A stretch of 64,000 nucleotides of DNA from Acidimicrobiia bacterium (GTDB lineage: Bacteria > Actinomycetota > Acidimicrobiia > Spongiisociales > UBA11373), in NCBI GenBank assembly GCA_016932695.1, contig JAFGCH010000143.1, positions 4,768 to 68,767 of the forward strand. The letters run 5' to 3'. Position 1 is the first letter of the stretch; every line of letters begins with the position of its first letter. The notes below the pieces were generated by a model. The model was not told the origin of the DNA. It was given only the letters and a program-made list of their open reading frames with translations, and did no database searches. Of the stretch, positions 10,718 through 31,575 are shown piece by piece. The translations under genes were made by a program, and so were the position numbers.

Positions 10718-12352
10718 TCAGGTCTGCAGTACGACAGGGATGACGACCGCCCGGCGCGACTTCTCCCCCCGGGTGACCCGGTTCACCGCCTGCACCATGC
10801 GGCGGCGCATCGCCTCGAGGTCCGGGGGCCCGCCGGCCATGGCGCGCAGCTCCTCGGCCACCGCCGCCGCCGCTTGGGCCAGCACCGCGGCCGGCTCTTG
10901 CACGAACCCGTGGCTCTCCAAGTCGGGGCCCTCCACCAGTTCCCCCGTCCTCCCATCCACCGCCGCCACCACCACGATGACGCCGTCCTCACACAGGTGG
11001 CGCCGATCGCGAATGATCCCACCGGCACTGCCCGCCACCTCGAGGCCGTCCACGAAAACGTGGCTGCCGGGGACCGCCCCCCGCTCCACCCGGGTCTCGG
11101 CGCCGTCGAGGACCAGGCGGTCGCCGTCCTCGCAGACGAGCACCTCCGGGACGCCCATCTGCCGGGCCAGGGCGGCATGGGCATTGAGGTGGCGGTACTC
11201 CCCGTGGACGGGTACGAAGGCCTGGGGGCGGACCACGTTGAGGAAGGTGCGCAGCTCCTCCTGGGCGCCGTGGCCCGACACATGGACGGGGGCGTTGTCG
11301 CCGTGGAAAACCCGGGCCCCCAGGCGAAGCAGGCCGTTGATCACCCGCGACATCCGGGTCTCGTTGCCCGGAATCGGCCGGGCCGAGATGAGCACGGTGT
11401 CTCCCTCTTCGATCTTGACCCAGCGATGGTCGCCCGCCGCCATCAGGGACAGGGCGGCGAAGGGCTCTCCCTGAGAGCCGGTGCACAGCACCGCCACCCG
11501 GTCGGCAGGATGGGTGAGCACCTCCTCCATGGGGATCACCGAGTCGGGCGGCAGCCGCAGGACTCCCAGGGCCTCCCCGATCGCCACGTTGCGCTGCATC
11601 GAGCGGCCCAGGAAGGTTACGTAACGCCCGCAATCGACGGCCGCCTCCACGATCTGCTGCACCCGGTGCAGATGGCTGGCGAAGCAGGCGGCGATCACCC
11701 GCCCCCGGCTCTCCACCACGATCTCGTATAGCGAGCGCGCCAGGCTCGACTCGCTGGGCACGAAACCCGGCTCCTCGGCGTTGGTGCTGTCGGCCAAGAG
11801 CAGCCTCACCCCCCGGCGGCCCAGGGCGGCGAACTCGGGGAGGTCGGTGGGCACCCCGTCGATGGGGGTCGGGTCCAGCTTGAAGTCCCCGCTGTGCACC
11901 ACCAGGCCGTCGGGAGTGTCGAAGGCCACCCCCGTCCCCTGGGGGATGCTGTGGGAGACCGGCACCAGCATGAAGCGGAAGGGCCCATGCTGCACCCACT
12001 CCCGGGGAGCCACCGGGCGCAGGTCGCCCTGCAGGCCCGCCTCCTCCACCCGGCTGCGGGCCAGTTCCACCGTCAGCGGAGTGCCGTACACCGGCACGGA
12101 GACCTCCGCCAGCAGGTAGGCCAGGGCGCCCACGTGGTCCTCGTGCCCGTGGGTGAGCACCACGCACTCGAGGTCGGCGCGCCGCTCCAGTACCGAGGCG
12201 AAGTTGGGGAGCACCAGGTCCACCCCGAGCATGCCTTCCTCGGGGAACATCAAGCCGCAGTCGATCAACGCCAGGCGCCCGTCGACCTCCAGCGAAGTGC
12301 AGTTGCGACCCACCTCGCCCAGGCCCCCAAGGAATGCCAGAGAAGTGCTCAT
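10718..12352 (-). CDS. rnj: Ribonuclease J
   Basis: LGGLGEVGRN, THGHEDH, SGDFKLD, CTGSQGEP, HVSGH. Confidence 0.95.
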   Translation of the reverse strand: MSTSLAFLGGLGEVGRNCTSLEVDGRLALIDCGLMFPEEGMLGVDLVLPNFASVLERRADLECVVLTHGHEDHVGALAYLLAEVSVPVYGTPLTVELARSRVEEAGLQGDLRPVAPREWVQHGPFRFMLVPVSHSIPQGTGVAFDTPDGLVVHSGDFKLDPTPIDGVPTDLPEFAALGRRGVRLLLADSTNAEEPGFVPSESSLARSLYEIVVESRGRVIAACFASHLHRVQQIVEAAVDCGRYVTFLGRSMQRNVAIGEALGVLRLPPDSVIPMEEVLTHPADRVAVLCTGSQGEPFAALSLMAAGDHRWVKIEEGDTVLISARPIPGNETRMSRVINGLLRLGARVFHGDNAPVHVSGHGAQEELRTFLNVVRPQAFVPVHGEYRHLNAHAALARQMGVPEVLVCEDGDRLVLDGAETRVERGAVPGSHVFVDGLEVAGSAGGIIRDRRHLCEDGVIVVVAAVDGRTGELVEGPDLESHGFVQEPAAVLAQAAAAVAEELRAMAGGPPDLEAMRRRMVQAVNRVTRGEKSRRAVVIPVVLQT

Positions 12353-13233
12353 GCCTGCTGGGCCACCGCCAGGGCCTGGCGCACCGCAGCGATGGTCGCC
12401 GCATCGGCCCGCATCAGAGGTAGTCGCGGGCCTCCTACCGGGGCCCACAACTCGTCCATGGCCGCCTTCACCGGCATGGGGTTGGACTCCAGGAACAGCG
12501 CCCGGCAGAGCGGGGCCAGCGCCAGGTGCAGGCGCCGGGCCTCGTCCAACCGCCCGGCGGCGGCCGCCTCCACCATCCGCTTCACCTGCCGGCCGGCGAG
12601 GTGCGACGCCACCGACACCACCCCGACCCCGCCCACCGCCATGATGGGCAGGGTGTTGATGTCGTCGCCCGAGTAGACGGCCATCCCCTCGCCCACCGCC
12701 CCCACAGTGGCCGTGGTGAAAGCCAGTTCGCCCACCGCATCCTTGACCGCCACGATCTGCGGGTTCTCGGCCAGGCGGGCCAAGGTCGCCACTTCGATGC
12801 GGGCCGCAGTGCGTCCCGGGATGTTGTAGAGCATCACCGGGAGGCCGGCGGCGCCGGCGATGGCCTCGAAGTGCGCCACCATGCCTTCTTGGGAAGGCCG
12901 GTTGTAGTAGGGGGTCACCGCCAGCACCCCGTCGCAGCCGACGGCGGCGGCCCGGCGGGTCAACTCCACCGAGTGGGCGGTGTCGTAGGTGCCGGTGCCG
13001 GCGATCACCCGGGCCCGGCCCTTCACCCCCTCTACCACGGCGCGGAAGAGGGCCGTCTTCTCATCGTCGGACAGGGTGGGCGACTCGCCGGTGGTCCCGG
13101 CCACCACCAGGCCGTCGCTACCCGTGTCCACCAGATGCTGGGCCAGCTCCCAGACGCGCCCGTGATCGACGGCCCCGTCGGGGCCGAACGGGGTGATCAT
13201 CGCGGTCAGCAGGCGACCGAACGGGGCGTCCAC
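12349..13233 (-). CDS. dapA: 4-hydroxy-tetrahydrodipicolinate synthase
   Basis: TAMITPF, GTTGES, YNIPGRT, VKDA, ESNPMPVK; AGGAG RBS before GTG. Confidence 0.95.
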   Translation of the reverse strand: MDAPFGRLLTAMITPFGPDGAVDHGRVWELAQHLVDTGSDGLVVAGTTGESPTLSDDEKTALFRAVVEGVKGRARVIAGTGTYDTAHSVELTRRAAAVGCDGVLAVTPYYNRPSQEGMVAHFEAIAGAAGLPVMLYNIPGRTAARIEVATLARLAENPQIVAVKDAVGELAFTTATVGAVGEGMAVYSGDDINTLPIMAVGGVGVVSVASHLAGRQVKRMVEAAAAGRLDEARRLHLALAPLCRALFLESNPMPVKAAMDELWAPVGGPRLPLMRADAATIAAVRQALAVAQQA

Positions 13234-13329
13234 AACTCCTCCCGGCTCGACACCGCCGGACGGTAGCATCGGCGCGCTCCGTGACCCGGCGGGAATGCCG
13301 CGCCCCGTTCATTGGTTCGAGGATCACAA

Positions 13330-14166: not shown

Positions 14167-14928
14167 CTAGCCGAGGACCGCTTCCAGGCCCACCGTCACC
14201 GGGTCCGGAAGGGCACCCACCTTGCGGATCGCCAGCATCACTCCGGGCAGGAAGGCCGCCCGGTCGGTGGTGTCGTGGCGGATGGTCAGGGTCTCCCCCG
14301 CCGAGCCGAGGATCACCTCCTGGTGAGCCAGCAGGCCGGGGAGCCGAACGGCGTGGATCTGCACTCCCCCGGCGGTAGCACCACGGGCGCCGGGCAACAC
14401 CTCGGCCGATTCCACCGCCCGCTCGGCCCGCCCCCCGGCGGCGGCCATGCCCGCCGCCGTGGCCAGGGCCGTGCCCGAAGGGGCGTCGGCCTTGCGGTCG
14501 TGGTGCAACTCCACGATCTCGGCGGCGGCGAAATGAGGGGCCGCGGCGGCAGCGAAGCGCATCATGAGCACCGCCCCGATGGAGAAGTTGGGCACCACGA
14601 GGCAGCTCGGGGGCGAACCTCCCCAAGCCTCCCGCAGCGCCGCCAGCCGGGCCGCATCGAAACCCGAAGTGCCCACCACCGCGTGCCGGCCGAGACGGCG
14701 CCAGTGCGCCAGGTTCTCCATGACCACCCCGGGATGGGTGAACTCCACCACCACTTCGACGGAGGCCAGCAAGCCGGGATCGCTGCCGACGGCGACCCCG
14801 GCCACCGTCTGCCCGGCACCGTTGGGGTCGTAGCCGGCGACCAGTTCCAGGTCGGGCGCCTCGGCAACCGCCGCGGCTACCAGGCGCCCCATGCGCCCCG
14901 CCGCCCCGGAGACGCCCACCCGGATCAT
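14167..14928 (-). CDS. dapB: 4-hydroxy-tetrahydrodipicolinate reductase
   Basis: GAAGRMG, VGTSG, PNFSIG, ELHHDRKADAPSGTA. Confidence 0.95.
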   Translation of the reverse strand: MIRVGVSGAAGRMGRLVAAAVAEAPDLELVAGYDPNGAGQTVAGVAVGSDPGLLASVEVVVEFTHPGVVMENLAHWRRLGRHAVVGTSGFDAARLAALREAWGGSPPSCLVVPNFSIGAVLMMRFAAAAAPHFAAAEIVELHHDRKADAPSGTALATAAGMAAAGGRAERAVESAEVLPGARGATAGGVQIHAVRLPGLLAHQEVILGSAGETLTIRHDTTDRAAFLPGVMLAIRKVGALPDPVTVGLEAVLG

Positions 14929-16175
14929 CGCACGAAAGCCTCCAGCTCCGGGACCCCGAAAGGCCCGACCGCCCCCAGTACTCGCGGCGAGGTGAACACC
15001 TCCCGGGCCACCTCGTGCACTTCGTCGAGGGTAACGCCCTCGATGGCGGCCACCGTCTCGTCGAGGGAGAGGTGGCGCACCCCGGTCAGCTCATGGCGGC
15101 CGAGGCGAATCATGCGGCTGTTGGTCTCCTCCATGGAGAGGGCCAGCGACCCCTTCATGTTGCCCTTAGCGCGCTCGAGCTCGTCGGCGGTCACCCCCGT
15201 TGCCGACAGGGCGGCCAGGCCTTCCCGGATCAGCTCCAGCACCTGCGCCGCCTGATGCGGGGTGGTGCCCACGTAGATCCCGTAGGCCCCCGAATCGGCG
15301 TAGGGCATGCGGAAGGAATAGACGGCGTAGGCCAAGCCCCGGTCCTCCCGGATCTCCCGGAACAGGCGAGAGGACATGCCGCTACCCAGAATGTGGTTGA
15401 GCAGGCCGAAGGCGAAGCGCCGCTCGTCACCCCGGGTGAGGGCCTCCCCGCCGAACACCAGGTGCGCCTGCTCGGTATCCCGCGTCTTGACCTCGACGCG
15501 CGGCACCACCGTCGCCTCGCGGAACTCGTGCCCCGCCGGCTCACCGTGCCAGTCACCGAAATAGCCGGCGGCCAGTTCCAGCACCTGCTCGTGTCCCAAG
15601 TTGCCCGCGGCAGCGACCACCACCGCCGGAGGCCGGTAGCGCCGGCCCCAGTACTCGGTGATCACCTCACGGCTCATCGCCGCGATGGACTCCCGGGTGC
15701 CCAGCACCGGGAGGGCCAGGGCGTGATCGCCCCACAGCGCCCGGGCGAACTGATCGTGGGCCACATCGGCCGGATCGTCCTCGTTCATGTTGATCTCCTC
15801 GAGGACGACGTTGGCCTCCGACTCGATGTCCTCGGGGCGGAAAGCCGGGCGCAGCAGCATCTCGGAGAGGAGCTCCATGCCCCTGGGGAGGTCCTCGTCG
15901 CGCAGCTGGGCCCAGAAGCAGGTGTACTCCTTGGAGGTGAAGGCGTTGGAGCGGGCCCCCACCGAATCGAAAGCCTGGGCGATGTCCTGGGCGGTGAGGC
16001 GCTCCGAACCTTTGAAGAGCAGATGCTCCAGGAAGTGGGAGCAGCCCGCTTCGGCGGTGGCCTCGTCGCGGCTGCCGCTGTCCACCCAGCACCCCACCGC
16101 CGCCGAGCGCACCGCGGCCATGCTCTCGGTGATGACCCGCAAACCGTTGGGCAATGTGGTCAGGCGCTGTTCCAC
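14925..16175 (-). CDS. M16 family zinc peptidase (pitrilysin-like)
   Basis: HFLEHLLFKG (HxxEH), NAFTSKE, SRLFREIREDRGLAY. Confidence 0.92.
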   Translation of the reverse strand: MEQRLTTLPNGLRVITESMAAVRSAAVGCWVDSGSRDEATAEAGCSHFLEHLLFKGSERLTAQDIAQAFDSVGARSNAFTSKEYTCFWAQLRDEDLPRGMELLSEMLLRPAFRPEDIESEANVVLEEINMNEDDPADVAHDQFARALWGDHALALPVLGTRESIAAMSREVITEYWGRRYRPPAVVVAAAGNLGHEQVLELAAGYFGDWHGEPAGHEFREATVVPRVEVKTRDTEQAHLVFGGEALTRGDERRFAFGLLNHILGSGMSSRLFREIREDRGLAYAVYSFRMPYADSGAYGIYVGTTPHQAAQVLELIREGLAALSATGVTADELERAKGNMKGSLALSMEETNSRMIRLGRHELTGVRHLSLDETVAAIEGVTLDEVHEVAREVFTSPRVLGAVGPFGVPELEAFVR

Positions 16176-16270: not shown

Positions 16271-17032
16271 ATGAAGCGCCGACTGGCCCTTTGCGTGGCG
16301 CTCACCGCCGTGCTCGCCGCCTGCGGGGGCGGCGCTTCCGATGGCATCCCCGGGACCACTTCTACGACCGGCGGCGCCGCCGCCACCACCAGCACCACCC
16401 CGGGCAACAGCATCACGGTGGCGCCCTTCGGGCCGCAGGACGTCAGCTTCGCCACCCCCGACGGACTCAACCTCGAAGGCCGCCTGTTCCCCGCCGGACC
16501 CACCTGGGTGCTGCTGGCCCACATGCGCCCGGCCGACATGGCCTCCTGGTTCGAGTTCGCCGCCGTTCTCCAGCAAGCCGGCTACAGCGCCCTGGCCTAC
16601 AACAACCGGGGCTACGGCAACTCCGACGAGGGCGACCCCCTCGACCTGGGGGCCGACGCGCAAGGGGCCCTGGCTTTCGCCCGGGCATCGGGAGCCCAGG
16701 CCGTCTTCTTCATCGGCGCCTCCATGAACGGCGCCGCCGCCCTCTTCCTGGCGGCCGAAGAGGACCTGGCGGGAATCGTCACTCTCTCGGGAGTCCCAGA
16801 GTGGGACAACACCCCCGGCCTCTCCCGCGCCGGCGAAATCACCGAGCCCGCTCTCTTCGTGGCCGCCCGGGACGACGGCCAGGCGGCGGCGATCGCCGAC
16901 GCCATGGGCGCCTCCGTAGCCGGCAACGCCCAGGTGATCGTCTACCCGACCGGCGGCCACGGCACCGCCATGTTCACCGCCAACCCCGGGCTGACCGACC
17001 TGCTCCTCGGTTTCGTGGCCGCCGGCTCCTGA
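16271..17032 (+). CDS. Lipoprotein alpha/beta hydrolase
   Basis: Lipobox VLAAC, Thr linker, IGASMNG nucleophile elbow, GGHGT; GGAGGA RBS. Confidence 0.8.
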   Translation: MKRRLALCVALTAVLAACGGGASDGIPGTTSTTGGAAATTSTTPGNSITVAPFGPQDVSFATPDGLNLEGRLFPAGPTWVLLAHMRPADMASWFEFAAVLQQAGYSALAYNNRGYGNSDEGDPLDLGADAQGALAFARASGAQAVFFIGASMNGAAALFLAAEEDLAGIVTLSGVPEWDNTPGLSRAGEITEPALFVAARDDGQAAAIADAMGASVAGNAQVIVYPTGGHGTAMFTANPGLTDLLLGFVAAGS

Positions 17033-17293
17033 GCCGGCCCCTCCCACGCCCTACATCGAGGCATGCGACGGTAGGCCGGCGCAAGCCCGTCGCTGGCGCG
17101 GGGCTCACCGTGTGCGCCGCCGCCTGCTTCGGGGTCACCGGTCGTTCTCTCCTCTGGCGGCAGGACGGGGGATCCCCGCCCACGCTGGCTTCGTCGCAGC
17201 CCCGACGTGGTGAACCTGCCAAGCCCGTCACGCCGGGCTTCTCGGCTACATGCGGGCTTGGGCAGCACCACCGCCGTGGGAGAATGAGGGGCT

Positions 17294-19396
17294 ATGCCGC
17301 GCCGGGAGACATCTCTGCTCACCGAAATCCTGCCCCCGGAGGAGCGCGCCATCGAGACGGTGGTGGCGCGCTACCAGAGGGTCGCGCCGGCGGTGACCCG
17401 CTTCGCCCGGTCGCTCTCCGGCGACGATCACCTCCGGCTGCGGCTGGGCTCGCAGGCTTCGGCAGCGCCCGGAGAGGTGGTGCTGGACCCGGGGGTGTTC
17501 CAGGCGGCCTACGCCCGGCAGGCCCCGGTAACCCCGGCCGAAGTCGCCCTGGCCTCGGCGCTGCACGAGGTGGTGCACCTGGTGGCCACCGGCTTCGACG
17601 AGCGCCGCCCCCTGCCGGCCGCCTGGTTCCCCGGCGCTGCCGAGCCTCTCCCCGAAGATCCCGTGCCCCTCCTCGACGCCCTGGCGCGTGCCGGGGGCGA
17701 GCCGGCCGAAGCCATGTTCCTGGCCGTCGAGGACGCCCGCCAGGAGGCGCGCGGCATGAACGCCTACCCGGGGGCCCGCTCCGTGCTGGCCGACCTCTAC
17801 ACCAGCGCCGTCCCCGCCGCCCTGGGCCGGGCCCGACCCATGGGGCAGTTCGCCCTGGCCTGTTTCCTCGCCGTCGGCGGCTACCAGACTCTCGAGGACC
17901 TCCAGGGACGCGCCCTGCCCAGAGTGTCCGCCGCCCTGGGTGATGCCGCCCGTGCCGTAGCGGCAGCCGCCGCCGCCCCCGGGCCCTGGGAGGCCGCCTC
18001 CGCCGCTCTCGAATTGCTGGCCGTGGCCCGCTACCACGGGCTGCTGACCGAGGCCTCTCCCACCGAACCCCCCGCCAGGCAGAAGGCCCGCCGGGCCGCC
18101 GAGACCGAGGAGATCAACTCGGGCGTGGACGCCGTGCGCCTCATCACTCCCGTTCTGAAGGATCCGGCCGGCTACGAGCAGACCCGGGGCGCCCCCGCCG
18201 CGGTGGAATCGACGAACGGACGCCCCGAGCGGGCCCAGCAGGGGGCCGACCCGGCCACGGACCAGATACTGCGCGTCAGCGAGGCTCCCCAGGTGCACCT
18301 CCCTACCGGCCAGGGGGGCCGGCTCCTCGTTGCTCCCTTGCCCGAGCGCTTCCGCCGCTTCGCCCTGCCCGGCCGGGAAGCGCTGGAAGCGGCCGCCCGG
18401 GACTGGGCGGTCGGGCAGCGGCACATCTCCGGCGAGCTCCTCCCTCTGTTCGCCGCCAACCAGCGACGGGGGCTGCGCTCCGGCTACGACGCCGGGGACC
18501 TCTCTCCCTATGCCGCCCTCTTCCTCGGTGCCGGCCTGTACCAGCGCATGTTCGAGCGCCGCGACCTCCCCACCCGCCGGGCGTACGCGGTGAGTCTCCT
18601 GGTGGACGGCTCCGCCAGCATGCTCCAGCCCCGCCCTCTCCCCGGCGACTACCGGGCCCCCTGGCCTATGGCGGCGGCCACCCTGGGGGCCTGGTCGCTG
18701 GCCCGGCTGTGCGACGAGCTTCAGGTCGAGTTCGAAGTGGCCCTCTTCAACCGAGCTTTCGCCGCCCGCCCCGACGACACCGAAGCCGCTTTCGTGGAGC
18801 GAGCCCACCTGACCAAGGGCGCCCTACGCCGCAGCCAGGGGAGCCACGCCGACCGCCTCACCCGCACCGTGAACCACTATCTGGTCAAGTCCTTCGACCA
18901 GCCCTGGCAGGCGGCCGAGGACCAACTCGCCGGCCTCTTCTGGACGGCCGCCCACCCTGCCGAGGCCGCGGTGGAGGCGCGCCGCAACCCGCACGAGACC
19001 CCCCCGGTGTCGATGTTCGAGAAGGCGGCCAACGTGGACGAGTTCAACGTCGTCCATGCCGTCCGCCGCCTCGCCCGGCGCAACACCCAGGTGCGCCTGT
19101 TGGTGACCCTGGCCGACGGCATGACCCGCGGGTCGGTGGAGGCCCTGGCCGCTGCGGTGGACGAGGCGGAAGCAGCCGGCACCGTGGTCCTCGGCATCGG
19201 TATCGGGGACGACACGGTGGCGGCGGCCTACTCGCGACACCGGGTGGTGGAACGGCCCGACGGGCTGGCCCGGGCCATGGTCGATGGGGTCCGGGCCGCC
19301 CTGCGCCGCAGCATCGCCCTGTCCGGAGGGGATACATGGTGGGTGCACGAAAGCCGCCTCTACGATGAGTCGCCGCCGAGGAGGACCCGTGGCTAG
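17294..19396 (+). CDS. vWA (MIDAS) domain protein with N-terminal HExxH region, CobT/NorD-like partner of a MoxR AAA+ ATPase
   Basis: LHEVVH and AVEDARQE in the N-terminus; LLVDGSASM (DxSxS) and TLADG in the C-terminus. Confidence 0.75.
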   Translation: MPRRETSLLTEILPPEERAIETVVARYQRVAPAVTRFARSLSGDDHLRLRLGSQASAAPGEVVLDPGVFQAAYARQAPVTPAEVALASALHEVVHLVATGFDERRPLPAAWFPGAAEPLPEDPVPLLDALARAGGEPAEAMFLAVEDARQEARGMNAYPGARSVLADLYTSAVPAALGRARPMGQFALACFLAVGGYQTLEDLQGRALPRVSAALGDAARAVAAAAAAPGPWEAASAALELLAVARYHGLLTEASPTEPPARQKARRAAETEEINSGVDAVRLITPVLKDPAGYEQTRGAPAAVESTNGRPERAQQGADPATDQILRVSEAPQVHLPTGQGGRLLVAPLPERFRRFALPGREALEAAARDWAVGQRHISGELLPLFAANQRRGLRSGYDAGDLSPYAALFLGAGLYQRMFERRDLPTRRAYAVSLLVDGSASMLQPRPLPGDYRAPWPMAAATLGAWSLARLCDELQVEFEVALFNRAFAARPDDTEAAFVERAHLTKGALRRSQGSHADRLTRTVNHYLVKSFDQPWQAAEDQLAGLFWTAAHPAEAAVEARRNPHETPPVSMFEKAANVDEFNVVHAVRRLARRNTQVRLLVTLADGMTRGSVEALAAAVDEAEAAGTVVLGIGIGDDTVAAAYSRHRVVERPDGLARAMVDGVRAALRRSIALSGGDTWWVHESRLYDESPPRRTRG

Positions 19397-20381
19397 AAGG
19401 ATCACTTTCGTCGACCCCACCGGGGAAGGATCCCCGGTGCACCTGGAAGCCGCCGACCTGCCGTCGGGCCTGCCCGACGGGCCCCAGCGCGCCGGCAAGA
19501 TCCCCCAACCCGACCCTTACTACGTCGACCTAGGGATGCTGTACAAGCTGGCCCGCCTGGAACAGGTGCGCCGTGAGCGGGTCAGCGACACCCCGCTCCA
19601 CGTGGCTTTGCGCGGCCACATGGGGACCGGCAAGGATCACGACCTCGAGCAGTTCGCCGCCCTGCTGGGCCTCCCCTACTACCGCATCCCCCTCACCGGC
19701 GAGGTGCGCGACATCACCCTGATCGGCTCGGTCAAGCTGTACGGCGACGGCAGGGGCGGCACGGAGAGCCGCTGGGAAGACGGCGACATCACCCGGGCCC
19801 TGCGCGGCCCGGCCCTGATCAACCTGTCGGAACTGAATGCCGCCGGAGCCGAGACTCTCTTCGCCCTCCACGGCCTGCTCGACCGCTATCAGACCCTCGA
19901 TCTGCCCACCGGGGAGGCGGTGCGCCTGCGACCCGACATCCGCCTCTTCGGCACACTCAACCCCACCGACCTGCGCGACTACGCCGGCACCCAAACGCTG
20001 AACAAGGCCTTTGCCGACCGCTGGGTGATTTGGGAGAAGCGGTTTCCCAGCGGCGAGCAGACCGAGGCGATGCTCACCCGCCGCTACCCCAAGATGAAGC
20101 CCGCCTTCGTGAGCACCATCGCCCGCCTCGCCGCCGAAGTGAACGAGTCCTTCGTGGCCCCAGACGCCCGCACCCGGGTGAGCACCCCGATGAGCCTACG
20201 CACCGTGCTCGACCGCATCCCGGCCGGGTTGTGGATGTATGCCGAGGCCGTCGATCCCCTGCGCCGTGCCTGGGAGGAGTTCGTCCTCCAGCACATCGAC
20301 CCTTACGACCTGGACCACTACGAGACGGTCTGGAACGCCATCGCCCGGCGCGGGCCCGCCGGCCCGCCCTTCGCCAAGTAG
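19389..20381 (+). CDS. MoxR/CbbQ-NirQ-NorQ-like AAA+ ATPase with atypical Walker motifs
   Basis: GHMGTGKD, LINLSELN, GTLNP, YAGTQTLNKAFADRW, SLR; overlaps the vWA gene stop. Confidence 0.85.
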   Translation: MARRITFVDPTGEGSPVHLEAADLPSGLPDGPQRAGKIPQPDPYYVDLGMLYKLARLEQVRRERVSDTPLHVALRGHMGTGKDHDLEQFAALLGLPYYRIPLTGEVRDITLIGSVKLYGDGRGGTESRWEDGDITRALRGPALINLSELNAAGAETLFALHGLLDRYQTLDLPTGEAVRLRPDIRLFGTLNPTDLRDYAGTQTLNKAFADRWVIWEKRFPSGEQTEAMLTRRYPKMKPAFVSTIARLAAEVNESFVAPDARTRVSTPMSLRTVLDRIPAGLWMYAEAVDPLRRAWEEFVLQHIDPYDLDHYETVWNAIARRGPAGPPFAK

Positions 20382-20416
20382 GTCGCTCCCCGGGCGGGCC
20401 GGGATGCTCCGACCTC

Positions 20417-21145
20417 TCAGATACCCGATCCGTCGGAGTGGGCCTCGTCGGCCGGGGGACAAGGCGTCTTGGACCCGTTGATGCGCCCCTCTAGTTCCGC
20501 CACCCGGTCGATGAGGACCTCCAAGACGGCCACGGCGTGATCCCCCTTGCTCTCTGCCAGATCCATGGCGGGGTGCGGCGCCGTCGCCCGGTCGATGACG
20601 CGGCCGGCCAGGCCGACCACCGTGGCCCCGGCGGGCACGTCCCGCACCACCACCGCCCCCGCTCCGACGCGAGCCTTCTCCCCCACGGTCAACGCCCCCA
20701 GGATGATGGCCCCGGCCCCGACGATCACCCCGTCCATGAGGGTGGGATGGCGCTTGACCCGCTGCAGGCTGGTCCCGCCCAGGGTGACCCCCTGATAGAG
20801 GGTGACGTCGTCCCCGATTTCCGCCGTCTCGCCGATGACCGTGCCCATGCCGTGGTCGATGAACAGCCGCCGGCCGATGATCGCCCCGGGATGGATCTCG
20901 ATGCCGGTCAGGGCCCGGCCCAGATGGCTCAGCGCCCGGGCGAGGAAGCGCTGCTTGGCCTGCCACAGCCGGTGCGCCAGGCGGTGGAAGAGCAGGGCAT
21001 GCAAGCCCGGGTAGAAGAAGAGCACTTCCAGGGTGGAACGGGCCGCGGGGTCGCGCTGTTTGACCGTCCGCACATCTTCCGCCAGGCGGCGCAGCGGATG
21101 CGGCCGATCGGGGGCCTTCAGTTCGGGGATGAGCCGGGCGGTCAC
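20417..21145 (-). CDS. cysE: Serine O-acetyltransferase
   Basis: [25 protein letters not shown], hexapeptide repeats. Confidence 0.95.
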
Positions 21146-22996: not shown

Positions 22997-24040
22997 ATGC
23001 CCCACTACGACATCGGCGACCCCGCCCTCGACCGCCAGATCCACCGCCTGGTGGCCGCTGCCGCCCCCGGCGGCGGGGGATTGCCGCCCGACGCCCACCT
23101 GGCCGAGGAGATGATCGTCACCGCCCTTCGCCTCCTGCGCGACCGGGCCGACCGGGCCGACCTGCGCCTCATCAATGCCGCCATGAAGGAGATGCGCTAC
23201 GCCTTCCTGGTGTTCTCCCGCTACCGGGAGGTGCGCAAGGCGGCGGTGTTCGGGTCGGCCCGCACCCCGGCTACCGATCCCAACTACGCCCTGGCCGAGA
23301 CCCTGGCCGCTCACCTCGCCTGGGAGCGGGGATGGATGATCCTCACCGGCGCCGGCCCCGGGATCATGGAGGCGGCCAACAAGGGAGCCGGCGAGCGCTC
23401 CTTCGGCATCAACATCCGCCTGCCTTTCGAAGATGAGCCCAACCCCTACGTCCCCGCCGAGCGGCTCATCAACTTCAAGTACTTCTTCCCTCGGAAGCTG
23501 ACTTTCGTGAAAGAGGCGCACGCCTTCGTACTCTTCCCCGGGGGCTTCGGGACGTTGGACGAGACCCTCGAGACCCTCACCCTGATGCAGACGGGCAAGA
23601 GCGATCTGCACCCGGTCGTCCTCATGGAGGCGCCCGGCACCGGCTACTGGCAGGAGTGGCTCGACTTCGTGCGGAGCACCCTGGTGCCTCAGGGCATGAT
23701 CGCCGATGACGACCTGACCCTGGTGCGCCTCACCCACGAAGTGCCGGTGGCCGCCGAGGAGATCACCCGCTTCTACGCCAACTACCACTCGCAGCGCTAC
23801 GTGGACGGCCATCTGGTGCTCCGCCTGCAGCACGCCCCCACCCCGGAACAGGTGGACCTGCTCAACGAACTGTTCGCCGACATCGTGGTGAGCGGGGCCA
23901 TCGAGGCCATCGGGCCGACGCCCGCCGAGGCGGAGGACGGCGACCACCCCAACCTGCCTCGCCTCCGCCTGCACTTCGACCGCCGCAGCCTGGGCCGACT
24001 GCGCGCCATGATCGACCACCTGAACTCGCTGGCACCCTGA
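22997..24040 (+). CDS. LOG family nucleotide phosphoribohydrolase (TIGR00730-like, long form)
   Basis: VFGSARTP, TGAGPGIMEAAN, PGGFGTLDE. Confidence 0.88.
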   Translation: MPHYDIGDPALDRQIHRLVAAAAPGGGGLPPDAHLAEEMIVTALRLLRDRADRADLRLINAAMKEMRYAFLVFSRYREVRKAAVFGSARTPATDPNYALAETLAAHLAWERGWMILTGAGPGIMEAANKGAGERSFGINIRLPFEDEPNPYVPAERLINFKYFFPRKLTFVKEAHAFVLFPGGFGTLDETLETLTLMQTGKSDLHPVVLMEAPGTGYWQEWLDFVRSTLVPQGMIADDDLTLVRLTHEVPVAAEEITRFYANYHSQRYVDGHLVLRLQHAPTPEQVDLLNELFADIVVSGAIEAIGPTPAEAEDGDHPNLPRLRLHFDRRSLGRLRAMIDHLNSLAP

Positions 24041-27131: not shown

Positions 27132-27195
27132 AGCGCCATGATGACACGCCGGCCGCCCCCGGTCGATGCGACCGCACCTCGGTACTCTGCCCCCG

Positions 27196-30100
27196 ATGCC
27201 CGCCCTCGAACTCTTCTCCCCCCCGGTAGCGGAGTGGTTCCGTTCTTCGTTCGCCGCCACTACCCCGGCCCAGGAGCAGGGCTGGCCGGCCATCGCCGCC
27301 GGCGGGCACGTCCTCATCCACGCCCCCACGGGATCCGGGAAAACCCTCGCTGCCTTCCTGTGGGGCATCGATCGCCTCTTCGCCGCACCACCTCCGCCGG
27401 AGCGGCGCCGCTGCCGCCTGCTCTACATCTCCCCGCTCAAAGCCCTGGCCTACGACATCGAACGCAACCTGCGGGCTCCCCTCCAGGGCATTGCCCGCTG
27501 GGCGGAGCGCTCGGGCACCCCGCTGCCGTCTCTGGTCACCGCGATGCGCACCGGCGACACCCCCGCCGAGCAGCGGCGCGCCATGCTGCGGCACCCGCCC
27601 GACATCCTCATCATTACCCCGGAGAGCCTGTACCTGGTGCTCACTTCGTCGGCCCGCGAGATCCTGGCCCCCGTGCGGTGGGTGATCGTCGACGAGGTCC
27701 ACGCCCTCGCCGGCACCAAGCGCGGCGCCCACCTCGCCCTTACCCTGGAACGGCTCGAAGCCGTCACGGCCGCCCCGCCGCAGCGCATCGGGCTCTCCGC
27801 CACCCAGCGTCCCTTAGAAGCGATCGCCCGCTTCCTGGGAGGGGGCACGCTCGACGGAGACGACTGGACGCCCCGGCCCGTGACCGTGGTCGATGCCCCG
27901 CGGGACAAGAGCCTGGAGATCGAGATCGTGGTCCCCGTCGAGGACATGACCCGCCCCGAGGACGACCTGCCGGCGCCGGACCCGGCGGCACCCCCGCCCC
28001 GCCGCTCCATCTGGCCGGCGATGTACCCCCAGCTCCTGGATCTGGTGCGGGCCCACCGCTCCACGATCATCTTCTGCAACAGCCGGAGCCTGGCAGAGCG
28101 CCTCGCCGCCCAGATCAACCACCTCGCCGGCGAAGAGCTGGCCAAGGCCCATCACGGCTCCGTGTCCAGGGAACAGCGCCTGGCCATCGAGGACGGCCTG
28201 AAAACGGGGACGCTGCGGGCGGTGGCGGCCACCTCATCGCTGGAGTTGGGCATCGACATGGCGGCGGTCGACCTGGTGGTGCTGGTCGAGTCCCCGCCGA
28301 CGGTGGCTCACGGCCTGCAGCGAGTGGGCCGGGCCGGCCACCAGGTAGGGCAGCCCAGCCGGGCCAAGGTGTTCCCCAAACACCGTCACGATCTGCTCGA
28401 GGCCGCCGTCCTGGTGCACCGCATGGAGCAGGGCCTGATCGAAGAGACCCGGCTCCCTGCGAACCCCCTCGACGTGCTGGCCCAGCAGATCGTCGCCGTG
28501 GTCGCCGGCGGCCCGCAGCGGGTGGACGACCTCTACGCCCTGGTGCGGCGGGCGGCCCCCTATGCCACCCTGCGCCGGGCTCCCTTCGAGGCGGTGCTCG
28601 ACATGCTCGCCGGCCGCTACCCCTCCGACGAGTTCGCCGAGTTGCGCCCCCGCCTGGTTTGGGACCGGGAGGACGGCACCCTCACCCCGCTGGGCAACGC
28701 CCGCCTCCTAGCGGTGACCAACCCCGGCACCATTCCAGATCGAGGGCTGTACACCGTGGTGGTGCCCGAAGGGGGGAGGGTGGGCGAACTGGACGAGGAG
28801 ATGGTCTTCGAGAGCCGCGTCGGCGACACCTTCGTGCTCGGCTCCTCCACCTGGCAGATCACCGAGATCACCGTCGATCGGGTGGTGGTCGCCCCGGCGC
28901 CCGGGTCGGCCGCGCCGCGGCTCCCCTTCTGGAAGGGGGACACCCCGGGACGCCCCCTGGAGACCGGCAGGGCCCTCGGCGAATTCACCGCCGCCGTGGG
29001 CGCTCTCGACCCCGCCGAGGCCCAGCGGGTGCTGATCGCCGAGTACCACCTCGACCGGAGAGCGGCGGCCAACCTGGCCCAGTACCTGGCGGAGGAGAAG
29101 GCGGCCACCGGCGCCCTTCCCACCCACCGCACCGTGGTCGTCGAGAGGTTCCGCGACGAAATCGGCGACTGGCGGCTGGTGCTGCTCTCCCCCTTCGGCG
29201 CCGGGATCCACGCCCCGTGGGCCCTGGCGGCCTCCCGCCGCCTGCGCGCCCGCCACGGGCTACACGTGGACGCGGTGTGGTCGGACGACGGGTTCATCCT
29301 ACGCTTCCCCGACGTCGACGATCCACCCGATCCCGCCGAGTTGGTGCTCGCCCCCGACGAGGTCGAGGATCTGGTGCTCGAGGAGGCCGGCGACAGCGCC
29401 TTGTTCGGCGCCGCCTTTCGCGAGGCCGCAGCCCGCGCCCTGCTCCTGCCCCGCCGCCGCCCCGGGCAGCGCACCCCGCTGTGGCTGCAGCGCCGCCGCG
29501 CCTGGGGCCTGCTCGCCGCCGCCCGCCGCTTCCCCGACTTTCCCATCGTGATCGAGGCCTATCGCGAAGTCCTACAGCAGCACTTCGACCTGCCCGCCCT
29601 GCAAGAGCTGCTGGGCGACATCGCGTCGCGCCGGGTGCGCCTGGTGCCGGTCACCACCGGCGGGCCCAGCCCTTTCGCCTCCTCGCTCGGCCTGGACTTC
29701 GTCGCCTCCTTCATGTACGAGTACGACGCCCCGCCCGCCGAGCGCCGCGCCGCAGCTCTCACCATCGACCAGGGCTTGTTGCGGGACCTCCTGGGTGAGC
29801 CCGAACTGCGGGAGCTGCTCGACCCCGAAGCCCTCACCGGCGTGGAGCTCGAGCTGCAGCACCTCGCCCCGGGGCACCGGGCGGTCGGAGCGGACGGCAT
29901 GGCCGACTTACTGCGCCGTCTCGGCCCGCTGACCGAAGCGGAGGCGGCCGCCCGGTGCGCCGAGGGCGAGGCGACCGCACTGCTCAGGACCCTGGCGGAG
30001 CAGCATCGGGCCTTCGCGCTGGCCCTGGGGGGCGAGACCCGCTGGGCCGCCGTCGAGGACGCCGCCCGCCTGCGCGATGCCCTGGGGGCTTCCCTTCCGG

Positions 30101-31575
30101 CCGGCGTCCCCGCGACCTTCCTGGTCCCGGTGACCGACGCCCTCGGCGACGTTGTAGGCCGCTTCGCCCGCACCCACGGGCCCTTCACCGAAGCGGCGGC
30201 GGCCGTGGCGCTCGGGCTCCCGGTCGCGGCGGTCGCCGACACGCTGGTCCGCCTCGAGGAGCGGGGGCGGGTGACCCGCGGCGCCTTCCTTCCCGGCGGC
30301 GCCGGCCGGGAGTGGGTCGAAATCGAGGTGCTACGCCGGCTGCGCCGGCGCTCCGTGGCCCGTCTTCGCCGACAGGTCGAAGCCGTAGACGGGGCCGCCT
30401 ATGCCCGTTTCCTCGCCGGGTGGCACGGCATCGGCGAACGGGCCGACTCGCCCGAAGCCCTCCTCGAGGCGGTCCGGCGCCTGCAGGGGGCGGCAGTGCC
30501 GGCCTCCATTCTGGAAGACGAGGTGCTGGCCGGGCGCCTCGACTACCGACCGACCTTGCTCGACACCGCCGCCGCCGCCGGGGAGGTGGTCTGGGTCGGC
30601 CGGGGAGCATTGGGCCCCAATGACGGACGGGTGGCCCTCTACCTCCGACCCCAGGCGGCCGCGTTGCACTGGCCCCTGGAGATCCTCACCCCCGACGAGG
30701 AAAGCCACCGGCGCCTGCGCGCCCACCTGGAGCAGCGGGGGGCCTCCTTCTTCTCCGATCTCTACGCCGCGGCCGGAGGAGGCGACCCGGAGCAGGTGCT
30801 CGACGCCCTGTGGGACCTGGTCTGGGCCGGAGAGGTCACCAACGACACCCCGGCCCCCCTCCGCGCCCGCCTCGCCGGGAGGTACCCGCGGCACTCCCCC
30901 GGCCGCCGCCGGCTTCCGGCTGCCACCCCGCCGGCGGCGAGTGGGCGCTGGTACCTGGTGGCGGACCTCCTGGCCTCGCCCTCGCCGCCCACCGTCGCCG
31001 CCGCCTCGCTTGCCGAGCAGTTGCTGGCCCGCCACGGGCTGCTGGGTCGTGACGCCGTCCTCGCCGAAGGGGTGCCGGGAGGGTTCGCCGGCCTCTACCC
31101 GGTGCTTGCCGCTTTGGAGGAGGCGGGCCGGGCCCGCCGGGGCTACTTCGTCGAGGGACTGGGCGGGGCGCAGTTCGCCCTCGCCGGTGCCCTCGACCGC
31201 CTCCGGGCGGGGGAAGCCGCCGGAGTGCTGACGCTGGCCGCGGCAGACCCGGCCCACCCCTACGGCGCCTCCCTGCCCTGGCCGGAGCATCCCGCCGGGA
31301 GGCCCTCTCGATCGGCCGGGGCCTACCTGGTGCTCGTCGACGGCCGTCCCGGCGCTTTCGTCGAGCGGGGCGGCCGGCGCCTGCTCACTTTCACCACCGA
31401 CGGGGCGGAACTGGCCGAGATCGCCCGGGCCCTCGCCGCCCTGGCCCGGCGACGCCGCCGCCTGCGCCCGGCCGTGGTGGACGGTCTTCCGGCTGAAGAC
31501 ACCGCCCTGGGCAGGGCGCTGACCGGCGCCGGCTTCGTGCCTTCCTATCGCGGCATAGTCCTGCGCCCGGCCTGA
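27196..31575 (+). CDS. lhr: ATP-dependent helicase Lhr (long form)
   Basis: APTGSGKT, VDEVH, LSAT, LELGID, QRVGRAGH; long C-terminal domain with RRGYFVEGLGGAQF. Confidence 0.93.
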   Translation: MPALELFSPPVAEWFRSSFAATTPAQEQGWPAIAAGGHVLIHAPTGSGKTLAAFLWGIDRLFAAPPPPERRRCRLLYISPLKALAYDIERNLRAPLQGIARWAERSGTPLPSLVTAMRTGDTPAEQRRAMLRHPPDILIITPESLYLVLTSSAREILAPVRWVIVDEVHALAGTKRGAHLALTLERLEAVTAAPPQRIGLSATQRPLEAIARFLGGGTLDGDDWTPRPVTVVDAPRDKSLEIEIVVPVEDMTRPEDDLPAPDPAAPPPRRSIWPAMYPQLLDLVRAHRSTIIFCNSRSLAERLAAQINHLAGEELAKAHHGSVSREQRLAIEDGLKTGTLRAVAATSSLELGIDMAAVDLVVLVESPPTVAHGLQRVGRAGHQVGQPSRAKVFPKHRHDLLEAAVLVHRMEQGLIEETRLPANPLDVLAQQIVAVVAGGPQRVDDLYALVRRAAPYATLRRAPFEAVLDMLAGRYPSDEFAELRPRLVWDREDGTLTPLGNARLLAVTNPGTIPDRGLYTVVVPEGGRVGELDEEMVFESRVGDTFVLGSSTWQITEITVDRVVVAPAPGSAAPRLPFWKGDTPGRPLETGRALGEFTAAVGALDPAEAQRVLIAEYHLDRRAAANLAQYLAEEKAATGALPTHRTVVVERFRDEIGDWRLVLLSPFGAGIHAPWALAASRRLRARHGLHVDAVWSDDGFILRFPDVDDPPDPAELVLAPDEVEDLVLEEAGDSALFGAAFREAAARALLLPRRRPGQRTPLWLQRRRAWGLLAAARRFPDFPIVIEAYREVLQQHFDLPALQELLGDIASRRVRLVPVTTGGPSPFASSLGLDFVASFMYEYDAPPAERRAAALTIDQGLLRDLLGEPELRELLDPEALTGVELELQHLAPGHRAVGADGMADLLRRLGPLTEAEAAARCAEGEATALLRTLAEQHRAFALALGGETRWAAVEDAARLRDALGASLPAGVPATFLVPVTDALGDVVGRFARTHGPFTEAAAAVALGLPVAAVADTLVRLEERGRVTRGAFLPGGAGREWVEIEVLRRLRRRSVARLRRQVEAVDGAAYARFLAGWHGIGERADSPEALLEAVRRLQGAAVPASILEDEVLAGRLDYRPTLLDTAAAAGEVVWVGRGALGPNDGRVALYLRPQAAALHWPLEILTPDEESHRRLRAHLEQRGASFFSDLYAAAGGGDPEQVLDALWDLVWAGEVTNDTPAPLRARLAGRYPRHSPGRRRLPAATPPAASGRWYLVADLLASPSPPTVAAASLAEQLLARHGLLGRDAVLAEGVPGGFAGLYPVLAALEEAGRARRGYFVEGLGGAQFALAGALDRLRAGEAAGVLTLAAADPAHPYGASLPWPEHPAGRPSRSAGAYLVLVDGRPGAFVERGGRRLLTFTTDGAELAEIARALAALARRRRRLRPAVVDGLPAEDTALGRALTGAGFVPSYRGIVLRPA

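Follow-up and report, generated by a model that had tools for sequence, protein, structure and literature searches.

The best described relatives of the system considered here are pairs in which an AAA+ ATPase is accompanied by a partner with a von Willebrand factor A (vWA) domain. In the ATPase CobS, the Walker A motif spans G71-S78, Walker B consists of D141-E142, and the other catalytic positions are N186, R210 and R271. CobT, its partner, has an N-domain that resembles M48C peptidases, followed by a linker of ~90 residues and a vWA domain; the segment in front of the vWA domain, Q373-R413, is inserted as a "shaft" into the CobS ring (10.64898/2026.07.21.739949). NorQ-NorD and CbbQ-CbbO are likewise ATPases each with a vWA partner, their known clients being cNOR and Rubisco, and a finger-in-pore arrangement has been proposed for all AAA+/vWA pairs from cryo-EM of NorQ-NorD (PMC13036017). 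NorQ and CbbQ have the canonical GKT/S and DE in their nucleotide sites. Few residues in biology are as highly conserved as the Walker B Asp and the Ser/Thr that follows the Walker A Lys. In a survey, the hydrogen bond between this Thr/Ser and the Asp is proposed to be a universal proton-trapping module of P-loop NTPases (PMC9599734), and in ClpB the Walker B Asp hydrogen-bonds waters (PMC3940203). What, then, is to be made of an ATPase in which these two residues have changed places? A gene for such a protein lies at 19389-20381 on the + strand of a 64,000-nucleotide stretch of DNA from an Acidimicrobiia bacterium (contig JAFGCH010000143.1 of assembly GCA_016932695.1), the whole of which is called the window below.

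The ATPase and Its Nucleotide Site

The gene starts with GTG at 19389, which agrees with the N-termini of homologues, and encodes 330 residues of an AAA+ ATPase of the MoxR / AAA_5 class, of CobS/NorQ/CbbQ type. Its Walker A motif, GHMGTGKD (19614-19637, + strand), ends in codon 83, GAT (19635-19637), so that Asp stands right after the Lys, and M78 is found where the outgroups have Thr. In the Walker B motif, LINLSE (19815-19832, + strand), the catalytic Glu, E148, is kept, N145 takes the place of a hydrophobic residue, and codon 147, TCG (19827-19829), places Ser at the position of the Asp. When the protein is aligned by HMMER with AAA domains of Midasin and with CobS, NorQ and CbbQ, D83 falls into the column of the Walker A Thr/Ser and S147 into that of the Walker B Asp; MAFFT, run with 17 canonical relatives, gives the same placement. 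This exchange had been pointed out earlier by a model that saw only the letters and the open reading frames of this DNA (the sequence-only reading below), and its positions proved accurate to the base, with the equivalence of the columns confirmed by the alignments. Every member of the clade described below departs from the canonical Walker A pattern, GxxGxGK[S/T], by Asp for Ser/Thr, and from the canonical Walker B pattern, hhhhDE, by Ser for Asp with the Glu retained.

The sensor-1 Asn, N191 (TLNP; 19959-19961), the arginine finger, R211 (ADRW; 20019-20021), and the sensor-2 Arg, R271 (SLR; 20199-20201), all on the + strand, had also been noted as intact, and rightly so. The first two never vary, be it in the clade or in the outgroups, the third is invariant in 81 clade sequences that use six different codons for it, and they correspond to N186, R210 and R271 of CobS. 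Taken with G76-D83 and S147-E148, the catalytic positions of this AAA_5 protein of ~330 residues match those of CobS. It differs from CobS by Asp for the Walker A Ser/Thr, by Ser for the Walker B Asp, and by an H2 insert that is longer by four residues.

Pfam AAA_5 matches residues 71-211 with 47.3 bits (gathering cut-off 22). An AlphaFold2 (AF2) model of the protein, with a predicted local distance difference test score (pLDDT) of 89.7 and a predicted TM-score (pTM) of 0.87, contains hairpins at 113-131 and 169-179 and confirms an AAA+ fold with H2-insert and pre-sensor-1 β-hairpin, closest to CbbQ/NorQ. The top Foldseek matches are CbbQ (6l1q, E = 8e-18) and NorQ (9qh4-9qh9 and 9qhd, ~1e-16), with TM-scores of 0.77-0.86 when normalised to the target and 0.61-0.68 when normalised to the query. 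Although NorQ and CbbQ are the best structural matches, their sequences are only 22-25% identical to that of the window ATPase, and their vWA partners have different N-terminal regions. In PHROGs the protein matches phrog_249, the phage CobS type, at 2.6e-26, and its 51.5 bits with the CobS equivalog of NCBIfam, TIGR01650, stay below the cut-off of 558.55. The H2-insert hairpin, residues 113-131 (19725-19781, + strand), is formed in the model by strands 113-119 and 125-131, and the MAFFT alignment shows a clade-specific insertion of four residues, GGTE, at 122-125. By analogy with NorQ and CobS, this hairpin is likely to be the contact for the shaft of the partner inside the pore.

Fixation of the Exchange

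Could the exchange be an accident of a single genome or of its sequencing? Both residues are present in all of the 120 closest protein homologues, which are 75-90% identical, come mostly from metagenome-assembled genomes (MAGs) of Acidimicrobiia or Actinomycetota, and carry GHMGTGKD and [LM]SELN. In a scan that took one genome for each GTDB species, 451 stretches were found to encode a relative, and the family loci used in this study are the best 80 of these together with two loci on metagenome contigs. The pair is found in 82/82. At D83 the codon is GAC in 61 loci and GAT in 21, and at S147 it is TCC in 55, TCG in 18, TCA in five and TCT in four. One metagenome member has AGC for Ser147 (L091, ~1219-1221, - strand) while all others have TCN. 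To pass between TCN and AGC, two base changes or an intermediate other than Ser are needed, which fits strong selection for Ser147.

Among 81 full-length coding sequences, only 43% of the sites are invariant overall, and 52% in the core. All residues of the nucleotide site are nevertheless invariant, in spite of a spread of synonymous codons, namely G76, M78, G79, T80, G81, K82, D83, H84 and D85 in and after the P-loop, S147, E148, L149 and N150 at Walker B, as well as T189, N191, P192, R211, S269, L270 and R271. Over the whole gene, the ratio of non-synonymous to synonymous substitution rates (dN/dS), taken pairwise between the window gene and the others, is 0.19 at the median. A metagenome collection was also scanned at the DNA level with two exact patterns. 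Not one family-type P-loop with Thr, Ser or any other non-Asp codon at position 83 was found in it, and the Walker B flanks with a codon other than TCN at 147 gave three matches, namely two unrelated membrane proteins and the member with AGC for Ser; no revertant was among them. Because the two residues are fixed, because their codons vary synonymously, and because dN/dS is ~0.19, the Asp/Ser state is a fixed and selected one and not an error or a sign of decay. Decay of the gene, against which the sequence-only reading had already spoken, is refuted to the point of being virtually impossible, and so are an error of sequencing and a mutation private to this genome, the state being identical in all homologues examined.

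Canonical Relatives and the Origin of the Exchange

What did this state arise from? In a filter-only HMMER search of 1.84 billion representatives clustered at 50% identity, the top 150 matches were crowded by multi-domain Midasins. At this level of clustering the family itself collapses to one full-length representative and fragments, and each fragment that covers a motif has GKD or SE. Some gene calls among these representatives are frameshifted or chimeric (P0124, P0127, P0131), P0131 being the C-terminus of the partner fused to the N-terminus of the ATPase, and such calls inflate the apparent diversity of the family.

All single-domain matches scoring above the canonical protein P0175 are family fragments with GKD or SE, and P0175, 44% identical over the core and carrying GHTGTGKT and ILDELN, is the nearest single-domain outgroup among the matches listed. 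P0175, P0270 and P0271 are AAA_5 proteins from uncultured organisms with GHTGTGKT and LDELN. A small sister group of the ATPase, P0272-P0275 (e.g., L086, 6001-7104), has a canonical GHTGVGKT together with a Walker B of LLLEEMN, in which Glu replaces the Asp; a gene of this type adjoins those for a HExxH-vWA partner of 627 residues and for a radical-SAM protein. From these sequences, the Mg site seems to be unusually plastic in the branch of AAA_5 that holds P0272-P0275. These closest relatives in sequence (44% identity at most over the AAA+ core and 23-30% over the full alignment) resemble the window ATPase in having an N-terminal "P-x-P-YYVD" element and partners of HExxH-EDARxE-vWA type. They differ from it in that their Mg site is canonical or has Glu for the Walker B Asp, and in that the ATPase gene comes before the partner gene; some of them lie on phage-like contigs. 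P0175 has in residues 1-110 a Cys-rich, zinc-ribbon-like N-terminal extension, and another relative, P0278, is encoded on a phage-like contig with YopX, lambda Ea47 and many small open reading frames (L088 and L089).

The clade is thus derived from canonical relatives, and no intermediate, either GKD with DE or GKT with SE, was seen among the relatives listed. Among ~530 P-loops in the Midasin-like matches, none has Asp after the Walker A Lys. To judge from these alignments, the exchange seems to have arisen once, at the root of one clade. Does the pair then covary, as the sequence-only reading asked? Every homologue examined carries both residues and the nearest outgroups carry GKT with DE or EE; yet a single ancestral event amounts effectively to one observation, and the covariation of D83 with S147 is for this reason beyond a statistical test.

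A Remodelled Magnesium Site

That Ser/Thr always follows the Walker A Lys, as the sequence-only reading assumed, is contradicted by a documented exception. Bacterial enhancer-binding proteins (PspF and NtrC; AAA+ clade 6) have a carboxylate at this position throughout the family, GxxGxGKE, and are catalytically competent. PspF carries GERGTGKE and LFLDEL in its PDB sequences; its E43 is said to do the job of Thr, and the E43D mutant has a Vmax of 22 versus 40 per min (~56%) with unchanged Km (PMC3419264). It follows that hydrolysis in an AAA+ site is possible with Asp next to the Walker A Lys. It is to be noted that the likeness lies in site chemistry only and does not mean family membership: the enhancer-binding proteins keep the Walker B Asp (D107, which is essential), have a GAFTGA loop, target sigma-54 and work without a vWA partner, while in the window ATPase Pfam finds no Sigma54_activat domain and the GAFTGA motif is absent from its sequence. 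With the precedent of PspF and GKE, an Asp after the Lys becomes less exotic, and what is new is that the Walker B Asp has been lost. In the survey already cited, which covers 3,136 catalytic sites, the supplement gives Gly and Asn as exceptions after the Lys and Glu, Asn and Thr as exceptions at the Walker B position, and the passages of it considered here, with the supplement, do not mention an Asp/Ser inversion (PMC9599734). Text searches of the literature found no described Asp/Ser swap between Walker A and B.

How might such a site work? We lean, by a modest degree, towards the following reading, which is built on analogy with the systems above. In the ancestor of the clade the Mg2+ site has been rebuilt, Thr being replaced by Asp83 and the Walker B Asp by Ser147. 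The carboxylate of D83 would be an inner-sphere ligand of Mg2+, as is the Glu in sigma-54 activators and as the Asp can be in PspF E43D, and the hydroxyl of S147 would be its partner, hydrogen-bonded to D83 or to a Mg-bound water, so that the site would keep one carboxylate and one hydroxyl. E148 would activate water, R211 would act in trans, N191 and R271 would serve as usual, and the enzyme would still bind and hydrolyse ATP. By analogy with NorQ-NorD and CobS-CobT, the ATPase is probably a hexameric ring, whose lengthened H2-insert hairpins would grip the pre-vWA "finger/shaft" of the adaptor. Nucleotide cycling would then twist or pull the adaptor, the MIDAS site and N-domain of which may hold a client protein, and the client would be remodelled or loaded with metal.

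Several observations weigh against this reading. The D107A mutant of PspF, which lacks the Walker B Asp, has a Vmax of 0.23 per min, ~0.6% (PMC3419264), which means that a carboxylate after the Lys does not alone make the Walker B Asp dispensable. According to the supplement of the survey, torsinA and DnaC, with Asn after the Lys, have very low ATPase activity (PMC9599734). A third observation comes from P101 (19689-19691, + strand), at the end of strand β2. This alignment column has Asn in 13/17 outgroups and Pro throughout the clade, and the "SLN" of PspF is aligned there; the Asn concerned, PspF N64, we take to be that of the glutamate switch, and column 101 is named here on the same assumption. 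The alignment thereby suggests that members of the clade have lost the glutamate-switch Asn, and their Walker B Glu may no longer be coupled to ligand binding in the usual way.

These observations, and the fact that both exchanged positions are normally essential, would all suit a different reading, in which the protein works as a switch that binds nucleotide, or hydrolyses ATP only very slowly; ATP binding and release, or single turnovers gated by the partner, would drive assembly and release of the adaptor, somewhat like torsinA, DnaC and the regulatory AAA modules of dynein and Midasin. However, the Walker B Glu, sensor 1, the Arg finger and sensor 2 are invariant under purifying selection amid wide synonymous variation, and degenerate AAA sites usually lose several of those residues. 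Besides, the ATPase is more conserved than its partner across the loci (73-90% versus 55-88% identity). A switch of this kind appears to us doubtful, though worth keeping in mind.

The last point against the favored reading is that changes do not stop at the two exchanged positions. Around the nucleotide site gather residues that all clade members share and no outgroup has: T78M and T83D in the P-loop and L85D and R87E in helix α1, N101P at the end of strand β2, Q105E, T107R and T108D just past β2, I133D, and V145N and D147S on the Walker B strand. Five acidic residues other than D83, namely D85, E87, E105, D108 and D133, have thus been gained. They raise the question whether we see a relocation and not a reciprocal swap, in which one of these five residues would have taken over what the Walker B Asp does, either the holding of Mg-bound waters or the acceptance of a proton. 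T78M, V145N and N101P are in line with such a redesign, and there is a precedent in the GTPase MglA, where according to the supplement of the survey the Walker B Asp is replaced by Thr and an Asp on a neighboring strand compensates (PMC9599734), although MglA is a TRAFAC GTPase and its compensating Asp is not the one after the Walker A Lys. Only D83 and S147 occupy canonical positions of the Mg site, and relocation is in our estimate unlikely, a little more so than the switch. It is also compatible with D83 as ligand and S147 as hydroxyl partner, which would then be part of a larger redesign. As the Asn in the glutamate-switch column is lost and other acidic residues are gained, compensation may not be the simple business of D83 and S147. 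The compensatory swap proposed by the sequence-only reading thus holds in that the exchange is real and selected, while a clean compensation between two residues is not shown, the remodelling being wider. Retained activity and altered metal chemistry, which the sequence-only reading also suggested, are inferences.

The CobT-like Partner

Directly upstream of the ATPase gene, at 17294-19396 on the same (+) strand, lies a gene for a protein of 700 residues with a HExxH N-domain, a linker, a pre-vWA segment and a vWA/MIDAS domain. It is labelled "hypothetical protein" in every source, and no Pfam family reaches the threshold in it. Weak Pfam matches among the members are to CobT, CobT_C, VWA and Copine; that of the window protein to CobT has E = 0.02 over residues 134-192, and that to CobT_C, found in 16/32 members, has E = 0.007 at best. 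A search of the PDB with the partner profile gave only marginal matches, to the MIDAS domain of Midasin and to the C-domain of CobT (E = 0.1), and the N-domain alone gave matches at chance level against PDB sequences. Homology becomes clear when the partner set is aligned by hhalign with the CobT_C-type partners of outgroup ATPases, with a probability of 97.3% and E = 2e-11 over 467 columns that span all motifs. In the AF2 model the N-domain has pLDDT values of 73-95 while the vWA half is mispredicted as helices, and the full model, with pLDDT 55, has no significant match in Foldseek.

The N-domain contains HEVVH (H91, E92 and H95; 17564-17578, + strand), a HExxH motif of zincin type, in which E92 and H95 never vary among 32 partner homologues and H91 is kept in at least 90% of them. 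Downstream of it, within the weak CobT match, is the invariant EDARQE (residues 146-151; 17729-17746, + strand). Residues 380-430 (18431-18583, + strand), in front of the vWA domain, are the most conserved stretch of the protein. They are a candidate for the "shaft/finger" that would enter the pore of the ATPase, an assignment made by position alone, since they directly precede the MIDAS DxSxS as the shaft Q373-R413 of CobT precedes D422. The invariant DxSxS itself, D438-G-S440-A-S442 (18605-18619, + strand), aligns to the MIDAS domain of Midasin, and the distal MIDAS Asp is found in the invariant ADGMTRG (residues 607-613; 19112-19132, + strand), whose aligned counterparts are "SDGAP" in the CobT C-terminal domain (PDB 21vt) and "LSDGQP" in an outgroup partner.

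The partners of three outgroup ATPases, 609-627 residues long, all have HExxH, EDARxE-like and DxSxS motifs, and Pfam CobT_C is found in one. At the same places as in the window protein they show HETAH, HELGH or HELAH, EDARVE or EDCRIE, and DISGS and DSSGS aligned to DGSAS. Together with the likeness to CobT, likewise an adaptor of ~600-700 residues with a linker, a pre-vWA segment, a MIDAS vWA domain and a peptidase-like N-domain to which that of the window protein may correspond, this comparison of sequences indicates that the HExxH-vWA architecture is older than the swap and is a general CobT-like design. Does the pair define an undescribed MoxR subfamily, as the sequence-only reading supposed? 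The clade is indeed distinct and unannotated, but its HExxH-vWA partner is not peculiar to it, as canonical outgroups have one too.

Gene Neighborhood and Identity of the System

The partner gene lies directly upstream and co-oriented in 81/82 loci. In the window the GTG start of the ATPase gene overlaps the partner stop TAG (19394-19396) by 8 nt, and its ribosome-binding site, GGAGGA (19380-19385, + strand), is inside the 3′ end of the partner gene, an arrangement that suggests translational coupling. A promoter and terminator scan of 16900-20600 found nothing, which is uninformative at 72% G+C; the window as a whole has 71.7% G+C, and most of the open reading frames listed in its other frames and strands are spurious.

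The surroundings were surveyed with six window genes as probes and with the annotated 6-kb flanks of the 82 loci. Chromosomal synteny is stable, with an M16 peptidase often upstream and LOG-like and MDMPI_N genes downstream; HAD and BtpA genes are further neighbors, and cysE/cysK occur in two loci. In the window the M16 (pitrilysin-type) peptidase is encoded at 14925-16175 (- strand) and a DHDPS-family protein at 12349-13269 (- strand). A LOG-family gene (Pfam Lysine_decarbox and SLOG cluster 4) follows downstream on the same strand in 59/82 loci, for instance at 22997-24040 (+) in the window, 8990-10102 in L001, 2202-3314 in L002, 6030-7037 in L022 and 7017-8036 in L029. In the window and in its two closest relatives, L004 and L006, cysE, cysK and a HAD gene on the opposite strand come between the ATPase and LOG genes. 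In L001 and L002 the start called for the LOG gene overlaps with the stop codon of the ATPase gene, and in L022 and L029 the distance between the two genes is within ~30 nt, which suggests an operon of three genes. The LOG-family protein could be a client or a functional partner of the pair. Its Pfam name Lysine_decarbox is a misnomer, and it is not to be confused with the lysine decarboxylase LdcI, which binds the MoxR protein RavA. The partner-ATPase pair is also present, at 75-79% identity, on contigs labelled as MAGs of Acidobacteria, Kiloniellaceae, Gammaproteobacteria and Saprospiraceae (L018, L027, L053, L054, L063), and LOG-like and MDMPI_N genes are downstream in L018, L053 and L054 too. 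Probably, these five are mis-binned contigs of Acidimicrobiia and not cases of horizontal transfer.

What is the pair, then? On the sequence evidence it is a CobS/CobT-like motor and adaptor, encoded by a two-gene operon conserved on Acidimicrobiia chromosomes. CobS and CobT are its best named relatives, and its best matches in PHROGs are of CobS and CobT types, so that one may ask whether it is the true cobaltochelatase motor of Acidimicrobiia with CobN encoded elsewhere. Most prokaryotes that bear CobN are without recognisable CobS and CobT (PMC8651126). On the other hand, the score with the CobS equivalog stays far below its cut-off, neither CobN nor any other cob gene is found in the window or the 6-kb flanks of the 82 loci (the large protein of 1469 residues encoded at 27166-31575 (+) in the window is an Lhr-type helicase, not CobN), and the gene order is inverted: the swap clade has adaptor-ATPase, whereas L085, L086 and L088 have ATPase-adaptor as in cobS-cobT. 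A cobaltochelatase is for these reasons improbable.

The same synteny bears on still another idea. vWA-MoxR pairs occur in conflict systems, and one outgroup pair is on a phage-like contig, so that an anti-phage or conflict function might come to mind. Yet neither protein matches any PADLOC family, the synteny with housekeeping genes is stable, and the sequences are conserved instead of diversifying. Such a function is in our view even less probable than a cobaltochelatase. A recent phage origin of the window copy was considered separately and is rejected, since its relatives in phage databases are only ~25% identical.

Concluding Remarks

Here, we have gone through a locus whose system type, a MoxR-class AAA+ ATPase with a CobT-like vWA adaptor, is known, and whose site chemistry is a new variant shared by a whole clade. 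The inversion is found in relatives from up to ~450 species-level genomes, with the other catalytic residues intact, and an unannotated, CobS/CobT-like chaperone pair conserved across the sampled Acidimicrobiia genomes is thereby defined. Canonical relatives exist at ~44% identity, which allows the role of the two residues to be tested directly on a protein that is small and soluble. Is the clade, beyond this, a fully active AAA+ motor in which a near-universal pair has been inverted, with a carboxylate as the inner-sphere ligand and Ser in the place of the Walker B Asp? We can put this forward only tentatively, with less assurance than the arrangement of ligands favored above and with little more than we grant to the switch. 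If it is true, the Walker B Asp would not be indispensable as a proton trap or as an organiser of water, and the inverted site may differ in the metal that it prefers or in how it is regulated, for instance by lacking the glutamate switch. The clade would then let experiments get directly at what these two residues do in catalysis, a matter of dispute.

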